Notes: a model not told the origin generated them from the sequence alone. A stretch of 64,000 nucleotides of DNA from an uncultured delta proteobacterium (GCA_963755715.1 CAVWLW010000036.1:52117-116116), one strand, 5' to 3'; numbered from the stretch's first letter, positions 16,119 through 63,062 are shown. Program-made: numbers and translations.

Positions 16119-16661
16119 ATGTCCGAGTATCGACGCGCCCATATTCCCGGCGGGGCTTACTTCTTTACTGTTAAGACCTTCGAGCGCAAGCCCGTTTTGA
16201 CTCATGAGCATTACCGTATCGCTCTGCGCGAGGCAATTACCGAAGTACGAGGGAGACTGCCTTTCGACAGCCTCGCCTGGGTTTTGCTTCCCGACCATAT
16301 CCATACCATTTGGAAATTACCTGAGGGCGATGTCGATTACTCCCTACGCTGGTCGCTAATCAAACAACACGTCACTCGGAAATGTGCGGAAAGGACTCAA
16401 GAGGTGTTAGTCAGCCAGTCACGGCAAAAACGCCGCGAAGGTACGATTTGGCAACGCCGTTTCTGGGAACATCTGATACGTGATGATCGCGATTTCCGAC
16501 GTCACATTGACTACATTCACTATAATCCAGTGAAGCACGGCTATGTTTCAAAAGTGGTCGACTGGCCATATTCAACGTTTCATCGATTTGTCCGTAACGG
16601 TGTCTATCCGACAGATTGGGCGAGTGCTGATGAAAACACAGCGTCAAATTATGGAGAGTAA
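16119..16661 (+). mobile_element. rayT: REP-associated tyrosine transposase (RAYT/TnpA-REP, Y1 HUH), intact
   Basis: YRR..PGGAYFFTV, WVLLPDHIH (HUH), IWQRRFWEHLIRD, YIHYNPVKHG, DWPYSTF; flanked by REPs. Confidence 0.93.
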
Positions 16662-50769: not shown

Positions 50770-51759
50770 ATGCGACGCGTTTTCTGCCTGTTCTTTATCT
50801 TGCTCGCGCCTTGCTTGTCATTGCCGCAACCGTCGCAAGCCCAGGAACGCATGCGCATCGCCTGGGCAGGCAGCACGCCGTCAAATACGCCGATCTGGGT
50901 CGCCGATCAGAAAGGCTTTTTCAAGAAGAATGGCCTGAACGCCGAAGTGATCGCCATCAGCGCCAGCACCATCGTGATCCAAGCCCTGCTTACCGGCGAA
51001 GTCGATTTCATCATCGCGCCGTCAGCCACGCTGGTCACCTCGCGCCTGGCCGGCGCGGACACAGTGATGGTCTCCACCAACTTGCCGCTGTTCATCGATC
51101 ACATTGTTTCTCTCGGCAATATTTCGAGCGTGGAGCAGCTCAAGGGCAAGATCGGCGGCGTAAACCGTTTGGGAACAACGTCGGACATGACTCTCCGTCT
51201 CGCTTTGCGCCGCTTGGGCGTCGATCCCGAGAAGGAGACCAAGATCATCGCCACCGGCGAGAATCCGCAACGATTGGCCGCTCTGGCCAACAATCTCACC
51301 CAGTTCACCCTCCTCGGCGAACCGCTCGTGAGAGAAGCCGAGAAGCTCGGCTTTCGCGATTTGTATGATATCGGCACGCTGAAAATTCCCTACCACGTCA
51401 ACGCCGTAGTCACGCGCGAGAAGACGGTCAAGGAGCGGCGCCCGTTCGTTGCCAAAGTCGTCCGCGCGTTCACCGAAGCGCTGCATTTCATCAAGACCAA
51501 CAAGGAAGAGACCAAAACACTGATCGGTAAAAATCTGAAGACTAATGACGCGGAAGGATTGGAGCGCGCCTACCGCGCCTACAACGGCGCGTTTCCCGAG
51601 GTGCCTTACCCAAACGCCGAAGGAGTGAAGACGCTCCTAGATGACATCGCCCCGCGCACGCCGAAGGCAGCAACCGCCGATCCGAAGAGCTTTGTCGATA
51701 TGAGCTTGGTTCAGGAACTGGAAGCGTCGGGATTTATCAAGCAGCTATATAAAAGGTGA
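50770..51759 (+). CDS. ABC SBP, NMT1/THI5/SsuA-like
   Basis: PIWVADQKGFFKKNGL, QLKGKIGGVNRLGT. Confidence 0.9.
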   Translation: MRRVFCLFFILLAPCLSLPQPSQAQERMRIAWAGSTPSNTPIWVADQKGFFKKNGLNAEVIAISASTIVIQALLTGEVDFIIAPSATLVTSRLAGADTVMVSTNLPLFIDHIVSLGNISSVEQLKGKIGGVNRLGTTSDMTLRLALRRLGVDPEKETKIIATGENPQRLAALANNLTQFTLLGEPLVREAEKLGFRDLYDIGTLKIPYHVNAVVTREKTVKERRPFVAKVVRAFTEALHFIKTNKEETKTLIGKNLKTNDAEGLERAYRAYNGAFPEVPYPNAEGVKTLLDDIAPRTPKAATADPKSFVDMSLVQELEASGFIKQLYKR

Positions 51760-51858
51760 GCGCCACAGGCTAAATTCAGAATGTCCCCTTTTTTTGCTTT
51801 GTCCCGCCTATTTTCTTAATTGTCATCCATCCGGCGTAACCCGTACGCTACAAAAGAG

Positions 51859-51906
51859 TTAGTAGACTTAGGCAAGCCTGACCCAGATTGTTCCTCAGAT
51901 TGTTCC
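51859..51906 (+). repeat. Cassette-boundary hairpin motif, copy 1, with adjacent 11-bp duplication
   Basis: TTAGTAGACTTAGGCAAGCCTGAC followed by CAGATTGTTCC-T-CAGATTGTTCC. Confidence 0.7.
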
Positions 51907-52020
51907 CCCGCTCCCACGGCATCGCCATGCGGCGGCGCGTCAACGCATCGCGTTGGCGCGTGAATTCCTTCTCGGTAGCGAGCAGGTCAAGGCGCGCAGG
52001 TGCCAGTCGCTGTGGTGCAG
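51905..52020 (-). pseudogene. DUF899 N-terminal fragment truncated at the boundary motif
   Basis: ARLDLLATEKEFTRQRDALTRRRMAMPWER. Confidence 0.7.
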
Positions 52021-52028
52021 GAACGAAG

Positions 52029-52778
52029 TCAGCGCCTGCCGGTTCCCAGGTCGTCCGAATACCCGGCCTTCAGGCGAGACCACTGCGAGGTGGGACGTCC
52101 ATCGGTACGCATACGCTGCTTGCCTTCCCACCGTTGTGGCCAGCCGATGGGCGAGTCCTCCCACGTCTCCTGCCGCCCGTAGACGGTCAGGTCGAGCAGC
52201 CGGTAGTTGTTGTCCATCGCCTCGACGCCGCGCATCCACGTCCAGTAAGTCTCGAAGACATTGGATCCTTGGCGCAGGTAGCAAACGATGTGCATCATGC
52301 CCACCTGGCGTCCGACCAAGAGAGTTTCGAGCGAGTCCTGGGCGGCCGAGTACCAAGGCATCTCCCAGCCCATGAAGTCGCGGTACCGGGCGCTCTCTTC
52401 GTACGGGCCTTGGCAGAACGTGGCGTAGGTGACGTCGCGAGCATGAATATTGGACAGCTCGCGGACCTGCGATGTAAAGAAGGTGCACCCCTCGCACTGC
52501 TCCGCCGCCGGGTGGCCGGTGTGCCACATGAAGTAGTAGGCGATGAGCATCCGGCGTCCCTCAAACACATCCAATAGTGTCACCGCCCCACGTTCGCCAA
52601 TGAGCGGTGTGGCACCGTCCACCTCGACCATAGGGAGCCGTCGGCGGGCGGCTGCAATGGCGTCGCCTTCTCTTGTGTGAGCCTTCTCTCGAACCCGCAA
52701 TGCGTCCAGCTCGGCCTGGAAAGTACCCCGATCGACCACCGCAGGCGCTGAAGGTTCATCTTTCATGAAGTCTGTCAT
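52029..52778 (-). CDS. DUF899 thioredoxin-like protein
   Basis: REKAHTREGDAIAAARRRLPM, LLDVFEGRRML, CEGC, LDLTVYGRQETWEDSP. Confidence 0.9.
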   Translation of the reverse strand: MTDFMKDEPSAPAVVDRGTFQAELDALRVREKAHTREGDAIAAARRRLPMVEVDGATPLIGERGAVTLLDVFEGRRMLIAYYFMWHTGHPAAEQCEGCTFFTSQVRELSNIHARDVTYATFCQGPYEESARYRDFMGWEMPWYSAAQDSLETLLVGRQVGMMHIVCYLRQGSNVFETYWTWMRGVEAMDNNYRLLDLTVYGRQETWEDSPIGWPQRWEGKQRMRTDGRPTSQWSRLKAGYSDDLGTGRR

Positions 52779-53011
52779 CGTTCTCTCCGTTAGCGCCTGG
52801 GGCGCTGTTGTCATTTTCCCTGAGGTCGCGCTCGACCTCATGGTCTCCAGTCCTATGCCTCGTCATCGTCTTTCCTTTCCGCGCGGTGGTGAGATCACAG
52901 TCCGCCAAGATCTCCTCCTGGCTATGCTCCGCGCACCCTGCGGAAGCACTCGCGCAGCTCCTGTGTGAAAAGAGCCAGCTGCGTCGAAGGCGGCGAAGTG
53001 GTCGCCCTTCT

Positions 53012-53815
53012 TTAGCTCGCTTTCGCCTCTGCGTCGCGCTTTCGGGCGGCTTCCTGAGGGTCGGTTATTATGTCGACCCACTTCGGGTCAGGCGAGGCCT
53101 CGGCGTCGTAGTTGTCGTGCCAGTTCCACCACTTGTACGGCGGGGTCTGGGGGTAACCCTCTGGCGAGTCCTCCCACTCCTCCTGGCGCCCGAGCGCAGT
53201 GATGTCGAGATAGTTCCAGGTGCTCCCCATCTGCTCGTCGCCGCGGCTGTTGATGAAGTAGGTGCGGAACACCCGCTCGCCGTCGCGGATGAACGCGTTC
53301 GTGCCGTGCCATTCGTCCACGCCGAAGTCGGCGTCGAAGCCGTCGGTCAACGTGTACCATGGCATCTCCCAGCCCATCCGCGCCTTCACGCGCTCGATGT
53401 CCGTCTGCGGCGCGCGCGAGGCGAACGCGAGGGTCGTGTCGCGGGCGTTCAAGTGGGCGACGTGGGCGACCTGGTCGGCCACGAAGGAGCAGCCGCGGCA
53501 GGCGTGCTCGGGCCAGCCGAACACGCCGGGCTCGAAGAAGGCGCGATAGACGATCAGCTGACGGCGGCCCTCGAACAGGTCGAGCAGGCTAACCTTGCCC
53601 TTGGGCCCGTCGAACTCGTACTTCTTCTCCACCGCCATCCACGGCATCCGTCGACGCTCGGCGGCCAGCGCATCGCGGGAGCGGGTCAAGGCCTTCTCCT
53701 TCACGAGGAGCTGCTGGCGCGCAGCCTCCCACTCCTGCTGCGACACGATCGGGGGTGTCTTCATCGCGAGATGCCCTTTCGGGTGCTCCTTGTCTCTCTC
53801 TTTGCTTGTTGCCAT
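53012..53815 (-). CDS. DUF899 thioredoxin-like protein
   Basis: EWEAARQQLLVKEK, LLDLFEGRRQL, CRGCS, LDITALGRQEEWEDSP. Confidence 0.92.
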   Translation of the reverse strand: MATSKERDKEHPKGHLAMKTPPIVSQQEWEAARQQLLVKEKALTRSRDALAAERRRMPWMAVEKKYEFDGPKGKVSLLDLFEGRRQLIVYRAFFEPGVFGWPEHACRGCSFVADQVAHVAHLNARDTTLAFASRAPQTDIERVKARMGWEMPWYTLTDGFDADFGVDEWHGTNAFIRDGERVFRTYFINSRGDEQMGSTWNYLDITALGRQEEWEDSPEGYPQTPPYKWWNWHDNYDAEASPDPKWVDIITDPQEAARKRDAEAKAS

Positions 53816-53816
53816 C

Positions 53817-54148
53817 TTATTTCTCCTTTGTTTTCTGAAACAGACCGAGACGATTCGCTCTGAAAAATCTTCTGAACTTGCCGATGCACACCGCCAGAAT
53901 TCCTCCCGTGGATCCGGCTCCGGCGACCATTACTGCTACTGCTGTGGATCGCCCTCGGAAGAGGTCCGTCAACGAGGCTCTCCTCTCATCGGTCTCGAAT
54001 CGATACTCCTTTGCGATGCGAACCCACGGCAGCTCCTGGCGCCGCCGCGCCAGCTCGTCACTGCGCCGCGTTAGTTCCTTCTCCGCCTTGAGCAGTTCGA
54101 GCCGCGCTGCGAGCCACTCTTCACGTGTCCGGTCATGTGCTTCGCCAT
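53817..54148 (-). pseudogene. Chimeric DUF899 remnant (N-terminus fused by deletion to a small-peptide tail)
   Basis: MAKHMTG/(shift)REEWLAARLELLKAEKELTRRSDELARRRQELPW...DLFRGRS joined to TAVAVMVAGAGSTGGILAVC...KTKEK. Confidence 0.7.
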
Positions 54149-54157
54149 GGCCGCCTC

Positions 54158-54535
54158 CTATTTCTTGATGGCGAAGTCCGCCTCGTCAAAAATCTGACGG
54201 ATCTCAATCACGTCGCCTTCGTCGGCGGGGCACCGCTGCGCCCATTTCACGAGCTCTTCTTTTGAGTTGGCCTCCACCATCCAATAACCGCCCAGCACTT
54301 CTTTCGACTCGATGAACGGCCCATCAGTCACCGTCGGCTTCCCTTTGCCGAACGAAACACGCGCGCCGGTGTTGAGCGGATGAAGGCCGTTCAGCGAGAG
54401 GATTTTGACGGCCTTGCCCAACTCCCCATTAAAGCGGGCCATCTCTTCAACTTTCTTTGGGTCGGGCACAAAGCCGGGGTCCAACTTCTTATTGCCTCTG
54501 TAAACATTGGGGATCATCAGCATCATGAATTGCAT
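54158..54535 (-). CDS. YciI/DGPF-family protein
   Basis: VTDGPFIESKEVLGGYW, IEIRQ. Confidence 0.92.
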   Translation of the reverse strand: MQFMMLMIPNVYRGNKKLDPGFVPDPKKVEEMARFNGELGKAVKILSLNGLHPLNTGARVSFGKGKPTVTDGPFIESKEVLGGYWMVEANSKEELVKWAQRCPADEGDVIEIRQIFDEADFAIKK

Positions 54536-54724
54536 AGGTCTTCTCCTTGGTTTTTATTTTGGTCCTGCACCCTTAGTCGTTTGGCGGCCCCCAAATTCGA
54601 CACACATCCAAACCATTTTTTTCCGATCTCCTGGAGCCGCCGTTCCCAAATACCGCCGCTCCGGAGCGGAGGCAACACAAAGGCTGTCGGGCACGCTGTC
54701 ATCTGTCCACGATCTTCGATTTCT

Positions 54725-54748
54725 CCCTGGCCGCGGAAGCGGCCAGGG
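54725..54748. other. GC-rich hairpin (possible terminator) next to the boundary motif
   Basis: CCCTGGCCGC-GGAA-GCGGCCAGGG, perfect 10-bp stem. Confidence 0.5.
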
Positions 54749-54761
54749 AATTGGCACAGAA

Positions 54762-54781
54762 TAGACTTAGGCAAGTCTGAC
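54762..54781 (+). repeat. Cassette-boundary hairpin motif, copy 2
   Basis: TAGACTT-AGGC-AAGTCTGAC (AGACTT/AAGTCT perfect stem). Confidence 0.7.
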
Positions 54782-54881
54782 AGCGAAAAGCCTTCTTCTA
54801 CCGAACATCAACCAGGTTGAAGCTACCTTCGGACAGCCTAACACTTAAGGGTAACCAGTCGAGGCCAGCCAGCGAAGCGAG

Positions 54882-55168
54882 CGAGAAGACCGTCAAGGAA
54901 CATCGCCCCTTCGTCGCCAAAGTCGTCCGCGCCTTCACCGAACCGCTTCATTTCATCAAGACCAACAAGGAAGAGACCAAAGCGTTGATCAGCAAAAATT
55001 TGAAGAACAACGACCCGGAAGGATTGGAGCGCGCGCACTCCGAAGGCCGCAACCGCCGACCCGAAAAGCTTCGTCGATATGAGTTTGGTTCAGGAACTGG
55101 AAGCGTCGGGGTTTATCAAGCAGCTGTACAAAAGGTGAGCCACAGGCTAAATTCAGAATGTCCCTTTT
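54882..55168 (+). pseudogene. Diverged duplicate of the 3' end and downstream flank of the 50770-51759 SBP gene, with an internal deletion
   Basis: Aligns to 51416-51790 including stop and CACAGGCTAAATTCAGAATGTCCC; about 86 bp (51570-51655 equivalent) missing at a CGCGC microhomology. Confidence 0.85.
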
Positions 55169-55245
55169 TCGCTTCCTTACTTGCTCGATGGCGTCCCGTC
55201 TTTTTTGATCCCGCATCGTCGCCGGAAACCGGAGGAAGCGGATCG

Positions 55246-56244
55246 ATGGCAACCCGACCTCTCATGAAATCGGTAAAATATTGGACGGTGTGTCTCGCTG
55301 TTGTATGGCTGGCAGCGTTGGCGGCGACGGGCGTAAATGCTCAAGGCAAGAGCTCGGGCGCCAAGATCAGGCTCGGCACGCCGTCGGCATCGCTGAGCTA
55401 TTTGCCCATCCATGTGGCGCTGCAGAAGGGTTTCTTCGCGAGACGGGGTTTAGATGTCGAAGTCATTCAGATGGCCGCGGGTTTGGTAGCGCCGGCGCTG
55501 CTCAACCGGGCGATTGATTACACCACGATTCCGAGCGGGCCGGCCACGGCGGGCGCGCGCGGCGCGCCGTTGAAAGTTATTTGCTTTACATCAGTGAAAC
55601 TCCAGCATGTGCTGGTGAGCCGGCCGGAAATTTCGGCGGTGAGCGATCTCGCCGGCAAAAGGATAGGCGCCGGGAGCTTTGGGACTCTGCCGGCCTACGA
55701 GGTTCGGGTGCTCATCGAGAAATATCGTTTAGGCGCGAACACCATCATCGTGCCGTTGAATTCGACTCTCGATCGGATGATCGGGACCCAACGGGGCACC
55801 ATCGATGCCACCGTGGTGCCGGTGCCGTCCGACTTGAAGGCCGAAGAGATGGGATTGAAACGGCTGCTACAGATGGGGTCGATCCTGCCGATTCCACAAG
55901 CCGGTTTCGCCACCAGCGAAGAAAAAATCAAGACCGCGCGCCAGGAAATTGTCGAACTCCTCAAGGCGACGATCGAAGGAATCGACTTCACGTGGAATCA
56001 ACGTGAGGAGACCATCGACATCATCGCCAAGTGGATCAAGCTCAATCCGATACAAGCGGCCAAGGCGTATGATTCCGTGCGCGACACGTTCTCCAAAATC
56101 GGCGTGCCCACCGAGGAGCAGGCGAAAGCCTACATCGCGATGCTCACCTCGACGGCGAGTTTGAAAGGAGATGTTGCGGCCGGATCGATCTTCGATTTCT
56201 CCCTAGCCGCAGAGGCCGCCAAGGAATTGGCGCAGAAGAAATAG
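55246..56244 (+). CDS. ABC SBP, NMT1/THI5/SsuA-like
   Basis: RBS GGAGGA before ATG 55246; signal peptide; KGFFARRGLDVE, DLAGKRIG. Confidence 0.88.
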   Translation: MATRPLMKSVKYWTVCLAVVWLAALAATGVNAQGKSSGAKIRLGTPSASLSYLPIHVALQKGFFARRGLDVEVIQMAAGLVAPALLNRAIDYTTIPSGPATAGARGAPLKVICFTSVKLQHVLVSRPEISAVSDLAGKRIGAGSFGTLPAYEVRVLIEKYRLGANTIIVPLNSTLDRMIGTQRGTIDATVVPVPSDLKAEEMGLKRLLQMGSILPIPQAGFATSEEKIKTARQEIVELLKATIEGIDFTWNQREETIDIIAKWIKLNPIQAAKAYDSVRDTFSKIGVPTEEQAKAYIAMLTSTASLKGDVAAGSIFDFSLAAEAAKELAQKK

Positions 56245-56382
56245 CGCAAAGGACACCGCGCTCTCACGTTAAAAACGTGGTGAGACCGACGAAAATCCGA
56301 AATGTGTCAACGCAAGATCTGACCCCAACATCGCACGGCTTTCGCAAGTAATCCATCACCCTCAATGCCCCGTAGAATTTCA

Positions 56383-56412
56383 TTGACAGGTTCGTCGCAG
56401 GCTGAATATAAA
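56383..56412 (+). promoter_or_regulatory. Putative sigma70 promoter
   Basis: TTGACA-N18-TATAAA upstream of 56442. Confidence 0.5.
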
Positions 56413-56441
56413 CGGCTCAATATAAGCGCGGGAGCACTTCA

Positions 56442-57962
56442 ATGCGTAGACATGGCACAGCGATCGATCGGCGCCGATTCTTGCGGCAGAGCGCAGCTCT
56501 AGGATTGGGAACCCTCTTCGCGCCTGCCTTGGCTCCAAGGGCGTCGGCGGCAACTAAAGATCGCATCGTCATCTATCAAGGCGTCAGTCTCGACTCGCTC
56601 CATCCCTACGGTTACAGCGGCGGCGGCATCACGGGCATCTGGCGCCACATCATCGAGCCGCTGATCCAGATGGATTACGACCGCAATGAATACGTCGGCG
56701 TGCTCGCTCAGTCGTGGGAGTTTCAAGGCCGCAAGTGGATTTTTCATCTGCGCAAAGGCGTGCGCTTTCACAACGGCGCGCCGTTTACTTCGAAGGACGT
56801 CGCCTACTCCATCGACAAACTGCAGAACGACAAGCGCAGCTTGCAGGGCGCCTACGTGCAAGGCGTCGAGGTGGAAACGCCCGACGATTACACGGTGGTT
56901 CTTACGACCAAGAGTCCCAATGCGCTTTTGCTCACCAGGCTGGAGACTCGGTTTATTCTCTCGAAGGAATACGGCGACGATCTGGACAATGCCACGGCCG
57001 GCACCGGGCCGTACAAATACGTGAGCTGGCAGCGCGGCGGCAACCTGGTGCTGCGGCGCAATGACGATTACTGGGGTCCCAAGCCGCAAATCCGCGAGGT
57101 GATTATCAAAGGCGTGAAGGAAGAAGCGGCGCGCGTGGCGGGACTGTTGGCCGGGCAGGCCGATCTGATCAGCAACGTGCCCATCGAAGACGTCGACCGC
57201 ATCGCCAAGCATCCGCGCGTTCGGCTTCAGGAGGTCGTCGGCTTTCGCATGTATTTTCTCGGCATGAACGTGACGATGAAACCTTTCGACAACAAGCTCC
57301 TGCGCCAGGCGATCAACTACGCGCTCGATCCCCACGTCATGTTGAAGCACATCTACGACGGCCACGGCGCGGTGGTGAACGGGCCGCTGGGCTCGAATTG
57401 GGTCGGCTTCGACCCGAAGATCAAGCGCTATCCTTACGACCCGAAAAAAGCGCGCGAGCTGCTGGCCAAAGCCGGTTATCCGAACGGACTCGAGACCAAG
57501 CTCTATCTCGCGCCGGACCGCCACCTCAAAGGCAGGGAGGTTTGCGAAGTGATCGCCGATCAGTTGGGCAAGGTCGGCATCAAAGCCGAGCTGGTGCCGC
57601 AAGAGTACGCCATCTACTGGGGCAAGGACGGCGTCAACGGCGGCAAGCTGCCGTTCTACTACGCCGGCAGCAACGGCAGCGACGCCGATGTCTATTTCGA
57701 ACAATACTTTCGCACCGGCGGTTCCAAGCGCATCAACTACAACAATCCGGAATTCGACAAGCTCATCGACGAGGAACAACGCACCGGCGATCACAAGAAG
57801 CGCATCGCGATTCTCCATCAGGCGGGCCGCATTCTCATGGAAGACGTGCCGTTCGCGCCGCTCTATACGCTCGCGGAACTTTACGGCGTGGCGCGAAACG
57901 TTATCTGGAAGGGCTCACCGGACGGTAAGATTCTTGCCTCGGAAATGAAAATCAAAGGCTAA
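56442..57962 (+). CDS. Family-5 (DppA/OppA-like) SBP with Tat signal
   Basis: DRRRFL Tat motif; LRKGVRFHNG, GTGPYK, PFDNKLLRQAINYA, YDPKKARELL. Confidence 0.92.
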   Translation: MRRHGTAIDRRRFLRQSAALGLGTLFAPALAPRASAATKDRIVIYQGVSLDSLHPYGYSGGGITGIWRHIIEPLIQMDYDRNEYVGVLAQSWEFQGRKWIFHLRKGVRFHNGAPFTSKDVAYSIDKLQNDKRSLQGAYVQGVEVETPDDYTVVLTTKSPNALLLTRLETRFILSKEYGDDLDNATAGTGPYKYVSWQRGGNLVLRRNDDYWGPKPQIREVIIKGVKEEAARVAGLLAGQADLISNVPIEDVDRIAKHPRVRLQEVVGFRMYFLGMNVTMKPFDNKLLRQAINYALDPHVMLKHIYDGHGAVVNGPLGSNWVGFDPKIKRYPYDPKKARELLAKAGYPNGLETKLYLAPDRHLKGREVCEVIADQLGKVGIKAELVPQEYAIYWGKDGVNGGKLPFYYAGSNGSDADVYFEQYFRTGGSKRINYNNPEFDKLIDEEQRTGDHKKRIAILHQAGRILMEDVPFAPLYTLAELYGVARNVIWKGSPDGKILASEMKIKG

Positions 57963-58029
57963 GTAAATCGCTAAAAGCTCGCGTCAGAAAACAAGTTGAT
58001 TGAATTTCCGATAGGTCAGGAGAAATAGC

Positions 58030-58581
58030 ATGGCTTACACGCTCGATGAGTTCGCCGCCGACTGCCGTCGCATCCTCAAGGCCGACCCAGGTCCGGCGGG
58101 GCGCGAAACGGTGCGAAAAAAATTGCAGGACTTGCTGATGAACGAGGATTTCGTCGCCGCCAATTGCGGGCCGAACGCCAGCGTCGGCACCAATCTACTC
58201 TATGAGGACCCGGAGTTAGGCTTCCAGATCCTGGCGCATATCATGGACCGGGACTATGCCGGCGGACCGCACGATCATGGCGACTCCTGGGCAATTTATG
58301 GCCAGGCGGTCAAACATACCGAAATGAGCGAGTGGAAGCGTACGGATGACGGCTCCGTTCCCGGCAAAGCGACAATAGAAAAGGCGAAGACCTATCGCAT
58401 GGAGCGCGGCCAGGCCGGTATCTTCCAGAACCGCGCCATCCACTCCATCGCCTACCCCGCCGGCGGGCGTTTCATCCGCGTCACTGGGACAAATCTAGAG
58501 AACATCGCGCGCGGCCGCTACAACAGCGAGGCGGGTACCATGGTGGTAGAGAAACGCCCCAACTTTCGCGGTGCCGCGTGA
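58030..58581 (+). CDS. Cysteine-dioxygenase-like cupin, hypothetical
   Basis: PHDHGDSWAIYG and distal IHS. Confidence 0.7.
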   Translation: MAYTLDEFAADCRRILKADPGPAGRETVRKKLQDLLMNEDFVAANCGPNASVGTNLLYEDPELGFQILAHIMDRDYAGGPHDHGDSWAIYGQAVKHTEMSEWKRTDDGSVPGKATIEKAKTYRMERGQAGIFQNRAIHSIAYPAGGRFIRVTGTNLENIARGRYNSEAGTMVVEKRPNFRGAA

Positions 58582-58688
58582 ATGACTAAAGTCAGGATTT
58601 GACTCCAAGCTTCATAGGCTATATCTCCGCTCGGAAAAAAGATGGTTTAAGTGTTCTATCCCTGTCCCAAGTTATAACTTGAGAACCG

Positions 58689-59708
58689 ATGGCTATGCGC
58701 CGCCTATTATTCATCGCGATTTTTTCGGTCGCGTTAAATTCTCTGTGCTCCCATTTTGCTCTCGGGGCTGCCGCCGGCAAAATCATTCTCGGCTATGCCA
58801 GCCCGGGCCGCGCCCTGCCGTTTTGGGTGGCGCAGGATATTGGACTTTTCAACAAGTATGGCGTTGATGTCGAACCGGTGTTTATCCGTGGCGCGCCAAT
58901 TCTCGTCGCCGGCCTGGCAGCGGGCGACATCCAAGTCGGCAGCACCGGCGGCAGCGCGACGCTCGCCGCCGTCGCCGGCGGGCAGGACTTAAAAATCATC
59001 GCGACCTTTGGCAGCCGCAACAACTTCGACTTAATGGCTCAACCCAACCTCAAAAGGCCAGAGGACCTGCGCGGCAAGCGCATCGGGCTCACCAGCATCG
59101 GCGGGACTACCTGGATGGCATTGCTGCTTTGGCTCGAGCACTTCGGCCTCGATGTTCAGCGCGATAAGATGCAGCTCCAGGCGCTCGGCGAACAGGCGCT
59201 GACGGTGCAGGCCCTTGAGGCCGGTATAATCAATGCTGCGGTCCTGGACGGCATCAACTCGAGCCGAATCAAACCCAAGGGATTCACGGTTATCGGCGAA
59301 TACTCCGATCTCAAGCATCAATTCCTCAGCCAGGCTTTGGTGGTGCAACGAAGTTTTTTGCAGCAGCGCAGCGACACATTGGAGGCCTTGCTCAAGGCTG
59401 AAATCGAAGCGGTAGCCTACATCGTGGCACCCAAGAACAAGGCGGCGGCAATCAAAACATTGATGCGGCGCATGAAAATCAATGCCGCGGGGGCCGAAGA
59501 GGGCTATCTTGACCTATTGCGCGTCTTGGAGCGCAAGCCGCTTCCGTCGGTCGAAAGCATGGTCCATGTGCAGCGCTTGATGAAAGCGCAGAATCCAAAA
59601 ATCGGCGCTGTGAACCTCGATGAGCTCAACGACGCGCGCCTGATCAAGAAACTCGATGATAGCGGCTTTATCGATAAGGCATTCGCGGCACAGGGAATGA
59701 AACCGTAA
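58689..59708 (+). CDS. ABC SBP, NMT1/THI5/SsuA-like
   Basis: PFWVAQDIGLFNKYGVDVE, DLRGKRIGLTSIGG. Confidence 0.88.
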   Translation: MAMRRLLFIAIFSVALNSLCSHFALGAAAGKIILGYASPGRALPFWVAQDIGLFNKYGVDVEPVFIRGAPILVAGLAAGDIQVGSTGGSATLAAVAGGQDLKIIATFGSRNNFDLMAQPNLKRPEDLRGKRIGLTSIGGTTWMALLLWLEHFGLDVQRDKMQLQALGEQALTVQALEAGIINAAVLDGINSSRIKPKGFTVIGEYSDLKHQFLSQALVVQRSFLQQRSDTLEALLKAEIEAVAYIVAPKNKAAAIKTLMRRMKINAAGAEEGYLDLLRVLERKPLPSVESMVHVQRLMKAQNPKIGAVNLDELNDARLIKKLDDSGFIDKAFAAQGMKP

Positions 59709-60121
59709 AGATCTGTATGCTGCGAGCGAAGGAAACACAGTTCGTGCGTTTCGGATGACCTCGGGTTGAAAACATCAAGATTCAAGACGTGACCCCGCAT
59801 CCTGTGTTTTCCGATTCGCGATTCGCGTACCGCTTCGCGACATGGGTTTCAAGGTCCTCAAGCTACTCGCGATCTTTGCCCGAGTGACGCCGTCCGAATG
59901 CACTATTCCAGATGTTTTGCCGTTGATTGCCGCGCGGGTAAAGCCCGTCGGCATCTTTAACAGCTAAAAGCGGACTTGACCCGATTTGGATCGCTCCAGG
60001 CTCGCCCGAAGCACACGCGGTGCGCACAGAAAGACGATTGACATCCCACCGGTCCCGGCGATATAGCTCAGGCCAGAAAAAAAAGTGGTTTAAAATTCCT
60101 ATACAGTCTGAGTCGGCACTG

Positions 60122-60520
60122 ATGGCCCAACAGTCCGTGGAGATGATCCTCGTGCGCCAGTTGGCGAGTTATCTCTTCGTGCCGGTGCTCGTCGTCGACA
60201 CCACGGGGACAGTGGTCTTCTACAACGAGCCCGCCGAGCGGATTCTCGGGGTGCGCTTCGAGGAGACGGGGCGCATCGGTCCCGAGGAGGTCGAGCGGCT
60301 CATCGAGCTGAGCGATGATCCCGCCGCCGGCCCGGACGAAGCCGGTCGGCCCATGGCCACCGCCCTCCAGCAGAGACGCCCCGCTCACGCCCGCCGCTGG
60401 CTGCTGCGCCGTGGCGATCGCGTGCGGCTGCAGGTAGAGCTCACCGCGTTCCCCGTCATCGACCAGGAGGATCGCCTGCTCGGGGCCGTGGCGATGTTCT
60501 GGGAGCGGTTAGGGCCATGA
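60122..60520 (+). CDS. Stand-alone PAS-domain protein
   Basis: VLVVDTTGTVVFYNEPAERILG, AFPVIDQEDRLLGAVAMF. Confidence 0.85.
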   Translation: MAQQSVEMILVRQLASYLFVPVLVVDTTGTVVFYNEPAERILGVRFEETGRIGPEEVERLIELSDDPAAGPDEAGRPMATALQQRRPAHARRWLLRRGDRVRLQVELTAFPVIDQEDRLLGAVAMFWERLGP

Positions 60521-61352
60521 GGATCACGCCCTACGGCGTGCGAGGCTCCCTGGCGGCGCCGGGACCCGCCACCGCCCGCTACGGCGGCAACACCTCGTGT
60601 GTGCGCGTGGCCGGGCCGGATGGCACCGTGCTCGCGCTCGACGCGGGGACGGGGATCCGGTCCCTCGCGCTCGAGCTGCCTCCGGGGCTTTCCCGAGTGG
60701 ACGTGTTGCTGACCCACCTCCACATGGACCACATCATCGGGCTGGGGTTCTTCGGTCCGCTCTACAACCCAGGAATGGAGGTCCACATCTGGGGACCGGC
60801 CAGCGCCACGCTGAGCCTGGAGGCGCGCCTCCGCCGGTACCTCGCTCCGCCCCTGTTTCCGGTGTTGCTGCGCGACCTGCCATGCCGCCTCGAGCTGCAC
60901 CACACGGGCCGCGGGCGCTTTTCCATCGGTGCGTTCCACGTCCGGGCCGCGCGCATCTGCCATCCGGGGCCGACCGTGGGCTACCGGATCGAGACGGAAG
61001 AGGGCTCACTCGCCTATCTCCCCGACCATGAGCCTGCGCTCGGGGCGCGCCGCTTTCCCATCGACGCGGAGTGGACGTCCGGCTTCGACCTGGCGCAGGG
61101 GGTCGATCTGCTCCTCCACGACGCGCAATACACGCGCGAGGAGTACCCCGGACACGTTGGCTGGGGACACAGCACGGTGCACGATGCGCTCGCTTTCGCC
61201 CGCCTGGTGGGCGCCAAGCACCTGGTCCCGTTCCACCACGATCCCGGCGGGACGACGCAGCGCTCGACACGGCGATCGGTGCCGCCGTGGCCGACATGGA
61301 CCCCGACTTCCCGGTGACGCCGGCGGCCGAGGGAAGGAGCTTCGATCTATGA
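60517..61352 (+). CDS. MBL-fold metallo-hydrolase (RNase Z/phosphodiesterase-like), frameshift near 61248
   Basis: GVRGS, RYGGNTSC, LDAGTG, THLHMDH, WGHS, FHHDP; the C-terminus AAEGRSFDL lies in the next frame. Confidence 0.85.
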
Positions 61353-61543
61353 AGGGTTCAGCGGCTCCCCGGACCCGGTCTCTCCGAACAGGAAGACGAC
61401 GGAGCGCGCCCGCTATTACCCTCCTTATTTCGTAACGCGGGTGAGCGGACATCGAATTGAGAATGCACCGCTGATCGAATATCAGACGTTCCATCGTATA
61501 GCAGGCTTGGCAAGGCCCACGCCGGCGGCACACATCCTGCAGA

Positions 61544-61590
61544 TCCTCGTGTCCAGCATTCCTCGTGTCAGACTTGCCGAAATCTACTAA
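61544..61590 (-). repeat. Cassette-boundary hairpin motif, copy 3 (inverted), with adjacent 10-bp duplication
   Basis: Reverse strand TTAGTAGATTTCGGCAAGTCT-GACACGAGGA-ATGCTG-GACACGAGGA. Confidence 0.7.
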
Positions 61591-61862
61591 TCTCTACAAG
61601 GCCCAGCCGCACGTATCCAGTGCGCAGCGATTGCAGGATACGCGCCGTCGGGAATCGATCGACCTCCAATAACAAGTGGAAGTGATTCGACATCAAAGAC
61701 ATAGGCGTAGAGAGAGAACGGGTAGCGCTTGCGCACGGTCTGAAGCGCTTCGACAAAGGCCTGATAGTCACTTTGCCTGAGGAAAATCTTCTGCCCGTCA
61801 TTGCCACGGTGGATCACGTGGTAAAGCAGTCCTTCGGCATAAACTCACGGATGGCGCGGCAT
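61591..61862 (-). pseudogene. Truncated Y1 HUH transposase (RAYT-like, IS200-related)
   Basis: MPRHP*VYAEGLLYHVIHRGNDGQKIF...SLYAYV/(shift)MSNHFHLLL; internal stop and frameshift; ends at the boundary motif before the catalytic Tyr region. Confidence 0.85.
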
Positions 61863-61936
61863 CGATTCGTGCACATAGTTGACATATAGTTCGGGCAAAG
61901 TTGTGGGCAAAGTAAAAGCACCAGACGTCATAACCC

Positions 61937-62965
61937 CTATTGGATGCCCGCCGCCTTCGCAAACGTCAGGTCGACAAATTTCTCCGTCGGCGGAAACGGC
62001 TTGTCGGTATAGCCGGCGTCCTTGGCGAACTGGAGGAGATTGTTGAAGCTGGCCATATCCAGCTCACCCTGCCTGGGGAGAATGCGCAGCTTGGGATCGG
62101 CATAGTTGGCAACCAGTTGATCGACGATGGCCTGAGGCTCTCCCGTGATCTCCTTGATGATCCGCGAAACTTCGCCGCGATTCTTGGGATCGTGAATGAA
62201 CCGCATGGCCGCGGCCTGCGCCCGCAAATAGCGCACGATGGCGTCTTGGTGGGTCCTGGCCCATTCGCGGCGCACGACTTCAACATAGAAGGTCACGGGC
62301 CCCGCCTCGACAGTGGTTCCGAGGCGATGGAACCCCAGGCCTGAGTTGATGGCTTGGATGTCGGTGGGGTGCACGGCGGCGATAGCCGCGCATTTCCCGG
62401 CCTTCAAGCATTCCAGGCGGGCATCGGACATTCTGATGGCTTCAAACGTGAAATCGTTTTTCCCGATGCCATGTTGGGCCAGAAGCGCACGGGTCGTCAG
62501 CGTGATACCATCCCACGGCGCGGTCAGGGTGATCGTCTTGCCCTTGAGGTCGGCATAGGTTCTGATCTCCGGCCGGGCGATCAGGCTGTAGACCGGATTT
62601 GCCGTCTGCACGCCTACCGCCACGGCATCCGAGCCATTCAACACGGCATTGATGAAAAACCCGCCATTGGCGGTCGCCATGTCGGCACGGCCACCGCGCT
62701 CTATCGAGGGCTCGTAGCCTTTCAAGGCAGCCTGCGAATTACTGTCGGGTCCCGCGATCGCATCCTTGATCACGTCAACGCGGACACCCGCTTGCGCGAA
62801 AAAGTCCTTCTGTTGCGCGACAATGAACGGCAGGCGCGCGAGGCCCTCGGCGTCCGCGTGGCGCAACGCCGGCATCTCCGCCGCCGTAGCGCTCTGGCTC
62901 GCAGCGCCCCGGGCCGTAACGATAGCGAGTATGACGAGAAGTACAGATGCGGTCCTGACACTCAT
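61937..62965 (-). CDS. ABC SBP, NMT1/THI5/SsuA-like
   Basis: Signal peptide; VAQQKDFFAQAGVRV, DLKGKTI. Confidence 0.82.
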   Translation of the reverse strand: MSVRTASVLLVILAIVTARGAASQSATAAEMPALRHADAEGLARLPFIVAQQKDFFAQAGVRVDVIKDAIAGPDSNSQAALKGYEPSIERGGRADMATANGGFFINAVLNGSDAVAVGVQTANPVYSLIARPEIRTYADLKGKTITLTAPWDGITLTTRALLAQHGIGKNDFTFEAIRMSDARLECLKAGKCAAIAAVHPTDIQAINSGLGFHRLGTTVEAGPVTFYVEVVRREWARTHQDAIVRYLRAQAAAMRFIHDPKNRGEVSRIIKEITGEPQAIVDQLVANYADPKLRILPRQGELDMASFNNLLQFAKDAGYTDKPFPPTEKFVDLTFAKAAGIQ

Positions 62966-63062
62966 CTTAGCCTCCGCTTTCGGTTGCATGTGTTGCTACA
63001 CTAGCTCTTAGTAGCGGAGCCTCACGTCCTAGTAATCGATCATCGTGTATGAATGCGCCGGT

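Follow-up and report, generated by a model that had tools for sequence, protein, structure and literature searches.

The closest described systems are the TIRtrons, elements that carry terminal inverted repeats (TIRs) and TIR-associated tyrosine transposases (TIRYT) (Di Nocera, De Gregorio & Rocco 2013, PMC3733652). They correspond to subclass 2.1 of TnpA-Y1 in Quentin et al. (2018, PMC6006769) and to what Bertels et al. (2017, PMC5581495) call RAYT group 1. A GGGGWSAS box fits "the majority" of published TIRtron TIRs, not all of them, according to the subclass survey (PMC6006769). A second described group, the REPtrons, couples a RAYT (TnpA-REP) with REP and REPIN sequences (Nunvar 2010, PMC2817692; Bertels & Rainey 2011, PMC3116915).

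We analysed a stretch of 64,000 nucleotides from an uncultured delta proteobacterium, hereafter the window. A preliminary description of this DNA had proposed that a hairpin motif, linked to a Y1 HUH transposase, marked a possible integron-like gene capture system. The motif is the 26–28-nt TIR of an insertion-sequence-like element family of ~0.93–1.05 kb. Its one gene specifies a tyrosine transposase of the RAYT-like Y1/HUH type, with a helix-turn-helix (HTH) at the C terminus, and the element class is already published, as TIRtrons/TIRYT. We consider it highly probable that the window holds a changeable island with dead TIRtron ends between acquired pieces, for which capture machinery is unneeded.

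The window motif, TAGAYTTMGGCAAGYCTGAC, matches at 51863–51882 (copy 1, plus strand), 54762–54781 (copy 2, plus strand) and 61567–61586 (copy 3, minus strand). The comparison of these three matches with an expectation of 0.01 is circular, because the search pattern was derived from the same copies. Independent support for a real repeat comes from the genome, with 8 exact matches, 14 at up to two mismatches and 17 at up to three, and from the genus, where the motif occurs in 22 of 31 genomes (the reversed pattern, used as control, gave 0–1 per genome). The proposed hairpin holds, weakly, for copy 2, which folds into a 6-bp stem of −4.3 kcal/mol, equalled by 13 of 200 shuffles; copies 1 and 3 do not fold.

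The link to a Y1 HUH transposase is borne out by intact relatives that bear the motif as both TIRs. The preliminary description had suggested looking for an intact homologue of the transposase at 61862, and such homologues are present in relatives: element L032 of genome G007 (28-nt TIR, 96% identity, 930-bp span, 291-codon open frame) and element L029 of G018, with an intact gene for a 247-aa transposase. In G000, five motif copies are inverted and precede transposase start codons by ~25–30 bp, and others come after the final codons of the gene. A mini-element of 393 bp, C50:3723–4115, has kept both ends. TIR pairs were obtained at 21 of 43 scanned loci, and 19 of the 21 span 912–1050 bp. An intact transposase of the motif subfamily (family 1) was not found in this genome by tblastx with the window DNA.

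Profile searches agree with this assignment. The intact paralogue L002 scores 85.2 bits on the NCBIfam model NF047646 ("REP-associated tyrosine transposase", cut-off 80), and L029 (78.8) and L003 (71.6) fall slightly below that cut-off. The HTH scan took in L002 and L003: L003 matches HTH_23 at 26.9 bits (cut-off 24.6), and L002 reaches 29.6 bits on Bac_DnaA_C against a cut-off of 31.5 (E 7e-7). The GGGGWSAS box is fitted by the TIRs of L002, L046, L053 and L060 and occurs exactly at 56319–56326 and 59789–59796 in the window; by eye, the family-1 tip G(T/G)GTCAGA agrees at 6–7 of its 8 positions. A right end of L003 was not found. Nor were target-site duplications seen, the 10-nt flanks of intact TIR pairs differing by eye.

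Two other identities were considered for the ends and rejected. Tn3-like 38-bp inverted repeats, suggested by the likeness of the GGGGTC... ends, do not agree with ends at a fixed distance around a Y1 gene in ~1-kb units. An IS200/IS605-type right end with an omega-RNA-like conserved stretch of ~180 nt is out because this shared stretch is simply the transposase 5′ end in reverse complement.

The elements resemble TIRtrons, as portrayed in the parts of the papers drawn on here, in their RAYT-like Y1/HUH gene of ~250–320 aa with a C-terminal HTH, in the position of that gene between TIRs, some with a GGGGWSAS tip and others, as in family 1, close to one, and in having solo and paired TIR repeats in moderate numbers along with miniature derivatives. 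Unlike the TIRtrons of those accounts, they are clearly multi-copy and recently active within the genus, with up to 31 transposase gene matches per genome (PF01797; 31 in G015, 15 in G018) and near-identical TIRs in different genomes. With REPtrons, as far as the corresponding accounts go, they share a related Y1 enzyme, a gene between inverted site copies and short derivatives dispersed in intergenic DNA. They differ in lacking a GTAG-tagged strong palindrome, in numbering 14–17 copies rather than hundreds (>100 per genome), and in a transposase gene that is multi-copy here and single-copy in REPtrons. Classic GTAGG-type REP-flanked RAYTs (L007, L008) are also present in this genome and are distinct from the TIRtron elements.

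IS200/IS605 elements have a short TnpA, no TIRs, and distinct left and right subterminal hairpins. The HUH-Y1 catalytic core is common to them and the elements described here, which differ in having TIRs; L002 scores 26.4 bits on the IS200 model NF033573, against a cut-off of 55. By analogy with IS200/IS605, the sites are probably subterminal, and cleavage would fall some bases away from them.

Of the elements, the window retains a single gutted transposase stub. Six or seven solo ends accompany it, and at least four TIRtron subfamilies are represented. Matches to the TIR catalogue are confined to 51.8–61.6 kb, and the strong TIR sites of the genome (36 in 7.4 Mb) are grouped in few islands. 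Copy 1 belongs to a family-1 right-end remnant (51810–51885, plus strand) that retains the last ~15 transposase codons and a 26-nt TIR (51857–51882). The remnant is 79% identical over 78 nt to the end of the intact L029, and its TIR is 96% identical over 26 nt to that of L032. Copy 2 is a solo family-1 TIR (54762–54788, plus strand), identical to the L032 TIR at 21 of 21 nt. Copy 3 is a family-1 right-end TIR (61563–61590, minus strand; 24 nt, 96% to the L029 TIR) and adjoins the stub (61590–61864, minus strand). The stub covers approximately codons 1–88, with one in-frame stop and one frameshift, confirming that the transposase is cut off at copy 3. Against the intact 247-aa G018 protein its identity is 61% over 56 aa, and at the DNA level it matches at 84% over 257 nt. 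An HUH motif (HFH) can be made out in the second frame, the catalytic-Tyr region and the remainder of the gene are gone, and no NCBIfam model matched. Its left TIR is missing, since homology to all other copies stops at 61864.

The related ends listed in the preliminary description fared unevenly. Those at 56313, 59783 and ~59973 are real: the first is a solo TIR of a second subfamily (56298–56328, plus strand; 31 nt, 87% to the L003 left end) with a GGGGWSAS tip, and the last is a solo TIR of a fourth subfamily (59959–59982, plus strand; 24 nt, 96% to element L005, right TIR at 21 of 21 nt). The sequence at 59783–59796 (plus strand) is the weakest of the window ends, with a GGGGWSAS fit on the reverse strand and no TIR-catalogue match. 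AGAATGTCCC (~51778, ~55155) is not an element end and belongs to a duplicated 147-bp 3′ flank of binding-protein paralogues (90% identity), and CTGTCCC at ~58662 found no support as an end. One end had been overlooked, a solo TIR of a third subfamily at 58584–58607 (plus strand), in which 58589–58603 matches the L042 TIR over 15 nt at 93%.

These ends lie in a variable island. The window from 49 to 64 kb is a patchwork of pieces with differing nearest relatives, and synteny with three relatives (G018, G037 and G015, ~80% identity) stops at ~49020; the mosaic proposed in the preliminary description is real. Synteny of the whole region in relatives, which had been named as counting against capture, was looked for and is not found; the capture idea is thus weakened rather than killed. 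Copies 1 and 2 bracket a DUF899 block (51897–54141, minus strand; 95% to G018:C46, in a non-syntenic place) and a YCII-domain gene, YciI (54158–54535, minus strand; PF03795, E 1e-14; 94% to G003:C30, 91% to G004:C9). The DUF899 block holds two genes (52029–52841 and 53012–53815, minus strand; PF05988, E 6e-51 and 3e-83) and, by translation, two N-terminal fragments on the same strand (about 51910–52028 and about 53960–54150). The first fragment is indeed truncated at copy 1, breaking after "...RRRMAMPWE", ~28 nt from the copy. Two 3′ fragments of binding-protein paralogues come next, both on the plus strand. One, from a paralogue of gene B (54710–54761, 52 bp; 88% to 56186–56237), abuts the TIR of copy 2; the other, from a paralogue of gene A, has an internal deletion and a flank (54878–55174; 87% to 51413–51569, 90% to 51653–51799).

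The remaining blocks are all on the plus strand. NMT1-type binding-protein gene B (55247–56244; PF09084 on the longer ORF 54817–56244) is 86–88% identical to G014 and G003. It is followed by a family-5 binding-protein block (56338–58577; 96% to G018:C17, 94% to G014, 91% to G004) with a family-5 gene (56442–57962; PF00496, E 1e-86) and a 183-aa gene without a Pfam family (58030–58581), labelled cupin-like in this analysis. The ancestral 3′ flank of this block is kept in G018, G004 and G015 and replaced in the window. NMT1-type gene C (58689–59708; PF09084) is 90% identical to G007:C160. A two-gene block with PAS-domain and MBL-fold hydrolase genes (60121–61349; PF13426, PF12706; ~70% GC) is closest to Methylomirabilota (86% DNA identity to a MAG of 69% GC), with no comparable match in 30 genomes of the genus. 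The impression that the enclosed blocks are GC-rich is right for the DUF899 genes (0.62–0.66) and PAS/MBL (0.69–0.71) and wrong for YciI (0.545), the reference being 16 long ORFs upstream (0.567 ± 0.016). The two GC-rich blocks are foreign. A tRNA-linked island was considered and rejected, no tRNA being found in 40–64 kb.

Contigs from independent soil runs of different studies span several of the island junctions. DUF899|YciI is spanned in run X2, gene A′|B in X4 and X11, and cupin-like|TIR|gene C in X1 and X2. X11 and X4 also cover the stretch from gene C across two ends into PAS-MBL and beyond it. Among the contigs listed, no family-1 junction is spanned by at least 31 letters, and one X2 record begins 15 nt within copy 1. 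A variant lacking ~87 nt around the 56.3-kb end (56263–56348) was found in three runs, with short sides of 29–30 nt; it keeps both flanks joined, which suggests insertion into a pre-existing junction. An apparent joint 61850→54762 was rejected as another genomic copy (C41) placed at two sites of the stretch. Other listed joints, at depth 2–10 with sides of 21–26 nt, were left out.

An integron-like system is unsupported, because no integrase lies on the contig and 19 of the 21 TIR pairs span only 912–1050 bp, without room for cargo. The absence of an integrase noted in the preliminary description is upheld: PF00589 has 13 matches in the genome and none on contig C36. The likeness to integrons, ISCR/IS91 and Helitron capture is superficial, consisting in same-direction sites in a row between unrelated genes. 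Unlike integron sites, those in the window are TIRs of transposase elements, and no attC-like structure was found, fold energies being near those of shuffles and 48.5–64 kb containing no match to a known RNA family in Rfam. Unlike ISCR/IS91 and Helitrons, the enzyme is Y1, not Y2, and the head of the array lacks an origin end and gene. No block is enclosed by a left and a right element end; the blocks sit outside the window ends, each of which is solo or gutted.

Where ordinary multi-copy insertion sequences are sites of recombination, insertion and deletion, element wrecks are left at junctions. On this model, elements would have inserted repeatedly into dispensable DNA, or come along with laterally acquired pieces. 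Recombination among copies, together with deletions next to them or at microhomologies, may then have joined the blocks, cut into the neighbouring genes (DUF899, the binding-protein paralogues) and worn the elements down to their ends. Processing or replication slippage at the element tip could have left the short tandem duplications beside ends as a by-product.

The duplications reported at copies 1 and 3 exist: a 12-nt tandem just outside the copy 1 TIR (51884–51895 and 51896–51907, plus strand, spacing 12) and, at copy 3, a 10-nt repeat recurring at spacing 16. Flank-plus-tip duplications are found at 16 of 65 ends, compared with 885 of 20000 random sites (4.4%), 1 of 65 positions inside elements and 5 of 65 further out. 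They are a family-wide signature. One unit of the copy 1 duplication is missing in soil contigs of X2 (depth 28.8 of 74.4) and X4 (8.85 of 8.85). Among the papers that a literature search listed, none concerned such duplications, and the passages of the TIRtron/TIRYT papers drawn on do not mention them.

The ends could be active joining sites rather than passive wrecks, a reading we consider unlikely. A TIRYT supplied in trans would cleave single-stranded DNA a few bases outside the TIR and move or stack neighbouring DNA, through occasional ligation of the flank to other DNA or read-through to the next end; an ISCR/Helitron-like transduction or an integron-like array would result. Enrichment of the duplications at ends and the polymorphism of one of them in soils speak for it. 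Block edges lie ~12–17 nt outside three ends (51882→51897, 56326→56338 and 58607→58620), and G018 has the same DUF899 break (GCTCCCACGG...), flanked there at 39 nt by an end from another subfamily that faces the same direction. Contig C54 carries a second copy, 95% identical, of a 211-bp piece whose end lies 12 nt beyond copy 1. Six of the seven window ends share one orientation, a count that is not significant. Edge spacing, the shared DUF899 break, orientation and the C54 copy fit break-and-join hot spots better than purely passive wrecks, with the confound that ends and block edges both must lie in intergenic gaps and that BLAST edges are fuzzy by a few bases. Active joining is opposed by the lack of cargo space in intact TIR pairs, by window ends that come from several subfamilies, by a genome without an intact family-1 transposase, by blocks that lie outside the ends with no left end and gene upstream of the array, and by the variant at the 56.3-kb end. 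The fuller proposal is similarly doubtful: TIRYT ends would be hot spots at which a trans-acting Y1/HUH enzyme cuts ~10–17 nt outside the TIR and at times joins that flank to DNA that is foreign or lies far away. The duplications would then be scars of this chemistry, and repeated end-adjacent joining would have built the same-direction rows of solo ends, with blocks of different origin in between.

A role for the short ends as domesticated REP-like hairpins, kept for host benefit as terminators or mRNA stabilisers downstream of genes, is very unlikely. Five plus-strand ends do lie 0–100 nt downstream of plus-strand genes, and the consensus TIR can form a 6-bp stem. Against this, only copy 2 among six folded ends beats most shuffles and four are indistinguishable from them, the copies number 14–17 per genome instead of hundreds, and intact elements have TIRs of identical sequence. 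That the mosaic is an assembly chimera joined at short repeats is extremely improbable: the genome is a metagenome bin of 76 contigs (4.2% contamination) in which the island sits at the end of a contig, and listed soil contigs stop at family-1 repeats, but the independent runs span several junctions, X1, X2 and X4 cover all 30 depth bins, and the junction repeats are of different families and so are not identical sequences.

What looked like a new capture system is an accumulation of wrecked elements from a class that has been described but little studied. The island adds evidence that, in a soil genus, TIRYT elements act as genuine multi-copy insertion sequences and mark islands of lateral exchange: the DUF899 and family-5 (SBP5) blocks, in non-syntenic places, are 95–96% identical between lineages whose syntenic core is ~81% identical, and one block crosses phyla. 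The enriched, population-polymorphic tip duplications point to where the uncharacterised enzyme may cut. If the ends do promote the joining of neighbouring DNA, bacteria would possess a Y1-driven equivalent of gene capture by ISCR elements and Helitrons, and with it a new way to shuffle genes.

The preliminary description reported a hairpin motif in three copies. All three 20-nt matches are present, at 51863-51882 (+, copy 1), 54762-54781 (+, copy 2) and 61567-61586 (-, copy 3), and the observation was largely right. No further match occurs in the window even with up to 3 mismatches; 0.01 would be expected, for a pattern derived from the same three copies. Independent of that derivation, a pattern scan of the whole source genome (G000; 7.4 Mb, 76 contigs, GC 56%) gives 8 exact matches and 17 at up to 3 mismatches. 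The motif also occurs in 22 of 31 genomes of the genus (0-14 per genome, up to 2 mismatches), with 0-1 for a backwards-read control. These genome-wide and genus-wide matches indicate that the motif is real. Its hairpin character is weak: on folding, copy 2 alone forms a 6-bp stem (-4.3 kcal/mol, equalled by 13 of 200 shuffles), and copies 1 and 3 form none.

The minus strand beside copy 3 carries the 5' portion (~88 codons) of a Y1/HUH transposase gene, with one in-frame stop, one frameshift and a recognisable HUH motif (HFH). We aligned the flanks of 16 motif copies. Five are in inverted orientation, 25-30 bp ahead of the start codon of the transposase, and others come after the last codons of the gene. 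From these two settings the motif is a terminal inverted repeat (TIR), as proven by intact elements in other genomes of the genus. In G007, element L032 has a 28-nt TIR (96% matched) enclosing 930 bp with a 291-codon open frame. In G018, element L029 carries a 247-aa gene flanked by the same repeats as the motif, and this intact homologue matches the window stub at 61% identity over 56 aa and 84% over 257 nt. The proposed tie between motif and Y1 transposase is thereby confirmed. Within G000, the close relatives of the stub are all fragments (C41:6175-6354, C33:274332-274472, C33:281330-281470 and C50:3765-3989), and no intact transposase gene of this subfamily (family-1) was found in the genome.

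Other Y1 elements of the same build reside in G000, namely L002 on contig C23 (315-aa gene, 38-nt TIR), L005 on C51 (29-nt TIR) and L003 on C50 (274-aa gene, HTH_23 domain). With 85.2 bits (cut-off 80), the L002 protein passes the NCBIfam model 'REP-associated tyrosine transposase', and it carries a DnaA-C-like HTH. An automated scan of G000 and five relatives detected TIR pairs in 21 of 43 loci, 19 of them spanning 912-1050 bp, with tips reading GGGGTCAG..., GTGTCAGAC..., GGGTCAAATC... and GGGTCAGGC.... RAYT-like genes with flanking TIRs have been named TIRtrons and their enzymes TIRYT, with a GGGGWSAS box and TIR repeats that are moderately abundant as solo, dimeric or grouped copies (Di Nocera et al. 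2013, PMC3733652). TIRYT corresponds to TnpA-Y1 subclass 2.1, with C-terminal HTH domains (Quentin et al. 2018, PMC6006769), and RAYT group 1 is described as the most IS-like of the RAYT groups, group 6 aside (Bertels et al. 2017, PMC5581495). The window motif is the TIR of a TIRtron. Two further loci, L007 (window ~16167-16520) and L008 (G000 contig C72), are classic RAYT genes between inverted GTAGG-type palindromes of 21-31 nt, 95-97% complementary. Therefore, REPtron-type and TIRtron-type Y1 elements coexist in G000.

The element copies in the window are wrecks. Copy 1 lies in a right-end remnant (51810-51885, +) made up of the TIR and the last ~15 transposase codons. Copy 2 is a lone TIR (54762-54788, +) adjoining a 52-bp 3' fragment of a binding-protein paralogue. 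Copy 3 is a right TIR (61563-61590, -) whose transposase gene is lost from ~codon 88 to its end; the element has no left TIR, since homology to all other copies ends at 61864. A short repeat (61863-61915, ~52 nt) stands in place of the stub's missing left end; further copies of this repeat and of another at 61439-61492 (~54 nt), 86-98% identical, occur in several genomes of the genus and on contigs C9 and C29 of G000. Among the 'related ends' listed in the preliminary description, two are solo ends of other subfamilies, at 56298-56328 (31 nt, 87% to L003) and 59959-59982 (24 nt, 96% to L005), and an end-like sequence at 59783-59796 fits the GGGGWSAS box only. The sequence AGAATGTCCC (~51778, ~55155) is instead part of a duplicated 147-bp gene flank, and CTGTCCC is without support. 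A solo end at 58589-58603 (15 nt, 93% to the Y1 locus L042) had been overlooked. Matches to the TIR catalogue are confined to 51.8-61.6 kb of the 64-kb window. Genome-wide, 36 strong TIR sites cluster on a few contigs, five of them inside 26 kb on C33, with miniature derivatives on C50 and C62.

Local duplications had been noted beside copies 1 and 3, and they prove general at TIR ends. We scored 65 distinct ends, representing eight TIR types in G000 and in loci of its relatives, for a direct repeat of at least 9 nt (at most 1 mismatch) at a spacing of 8-20 within a 46-nt segment made up of 40 nt of outer flank and the first 6 nt of the TIR. Such a repeat was present at 16/65 ends, compared with 885/20000 random genome 46-mers, 1/65 segments 30-76 nt inside the same elements and 5/65 lying 94-140 nt further outside the same ends. 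Spacings were 8-19, most commonly 12. Several duplicated units combine flank and TIR tip, and locus L019 has three such units in a row. A stricter test on junction 10-mers gave 8/82 versus 18/5000. Contigs of two public metagenome runs (X2 and X4) lack the 12-nt duplication at 51884, which is thus polymorphic. A single limited literature search found no paper that mentions TIR-end duplications.

The surrounding island is variable and built from laterally exchanged pieces. The region 50.7-59.7 kb contains three full NMT1-type binding-protein genes, and a fourth is located at 61937-62989. Also present in the island are a family-5 binding-protein gene, two full DUF899 genes, YCII, PAS, an MBL-fold hydrolase and a 183-aa gene with no Pfam family. 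From 26 to 49 kb, synteny holds with G018:C35, G037:C17 and G015:C5 (~77-89% identity, mostly ~80%). Synteny ends at ~49020 in all three, and none was found with them from there to the contig end (64000), so the synteny of the whole region that the preliminary description had named as contrary to its proposal is not seen. The DUF899 block (51897-54141) is nearest to G018:C46 (95%) and partly to contig C41 of G000 itself (93%), YCII to G003 (94%), binding-protein gene B to G003 and G014 (86-88%), the SBP5 and 183-aa genes (56338-58577) to G018:C17 (96%) and binding-protein gene C to G007 (90%). PAS-MBL (60121-61349) is nearest to a Methylomirabilota MAG of 69% GC (86% DNA identity), with no comparable match among 30 genus genomes; one of these, G005, is flagged unpublished, and no conclusion depends on it by itself. 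GC computed per segment, as had been suggested, is 0.62-0.66 for DUF899 and 0.69-0.71 for PAS/MBL, above the 0.567 +/- 0.016 of 16 upstream ORFs.

Because the DUF899 and SBP5 blocks match G018 at 95-96%, far above the syntenic core (~81%), sequence comparison points to their recent lateral exchange. The SBP5 block has a single 3' flank common to G018, G004 and G015, from which G000 diverges at the stop codon, indicating that the block was displaced in G000; the divergence point is the site of the L042-type solo end. Copies of the DUF899 block at G000 C41:1-7000 and G018:C46:394-406 kb again lie within a few kb of family-1 TIRs and transposase stubs, and block and family-1 elements keep company at three places. 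A second DUF899 N-terminal fragment (53835-54150, -; ~60 aa) runs into unrelated sequence directly downstream of YCII, an arrangement common to G018. At 60026-60107, a ~80-nt promoter-like element consists of TTGACA, ~18 nt and TATAGC, followed by an A-run and GTGGTTTAAAATTCCTATACAG. Copies with 78-93% identity are found in many genomes of the genus and, within G000, on contigs C50 and C23. The C50 copy lies immediately ahead of a gene similar to the 183-aa gene (58030), and the window copy lies ahead of the foreign PAS-MBL block. A shared regulon promoter or leader is more probable than a mobile element. No tRNA was found at 40-64 kb and no Rfam family at 48.5-64 kb. The reported absence of an integrase holds for the window's contig, C36, with no PF00589 recombinase match compared with 13 in the genome.

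Part of the stretch is present in 23 public runs from 12 studies. Contigs from four runs (soil or rhizosphere, one per study) were aligned to the window; X1, X2 and X4 cover 30/30 depth bins. The junction of DUF899 fragment and YCII is bridged by X2 contigs, that of the gene A' fragment and gene B by X4 and X11, and that of the 183-aa gene, solo end and gene C by X1 and X2. Contigs of X11 and X4 link gene C, across two ends and the promoter-like repeat, to PAS-MBL and extend beyond it. Among the contigs listed, none bridges any of the three family-1 copies by 31 letters; unitigs break at repeats. Three runs contain, at low depth, a form without 56263-56348, the segment that includes the 56.3-kb end; this form has sides of just 29-30 nt, and contigs are broken at its borders. 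All four aligned runs show a 1-nt indel relative to the window at 61245, which makes the frameshift near the end of the MBL-fold gene either specific to the present assembly or an assembly error.

The mosaic is very probably a plain graveyard of element wrecks. Multi-copy elements would have inserted into dispensable DNA or arrived together with it. The copies would then have recombined with one another, and these events, along with deletions next to the ends or at microhomologies, would have joined the blocks, cut DUF899 and the paralogous binding-protein genes, and eroded the elements. Active joining of element ends to neighbouring DNA, in a capture-like manner, seems unlikely to us. Three block edges do lie 12-17 nt outside an element end, G000 and G018 have ends of different subfamilies beside the DUF899 break, 6/7 element ends share one orientation, and a 211-bp piece ending just past copy 1 has been copied to contig C54. 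However, the blocks lie outside the ends and are not enclosed by a left and a right end, and ends and block edges alike are restricted to intergenic gaps. Cargo would have no room in 19/21 intact TIR pairs, the window ends come from at least four subfamilies, and G000 lacks an intact family-1 enzyme; these points count against active joining and leave the integron-like capture system of the preliminary description unsupported.

Matches to PF01797 number 31 in G015, 15 in G018 and 9 in G000. Some genus genomes hold many full-length TIRYT genes (280-350 aa), and several of these stand in tandem over a few kb (e.g., G015:C8:236-242 kb), which suggests that the elements transposed in recent bursts. 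The elements of the window belong to this known TIRtron/TIRYT class, not to a new capture system.
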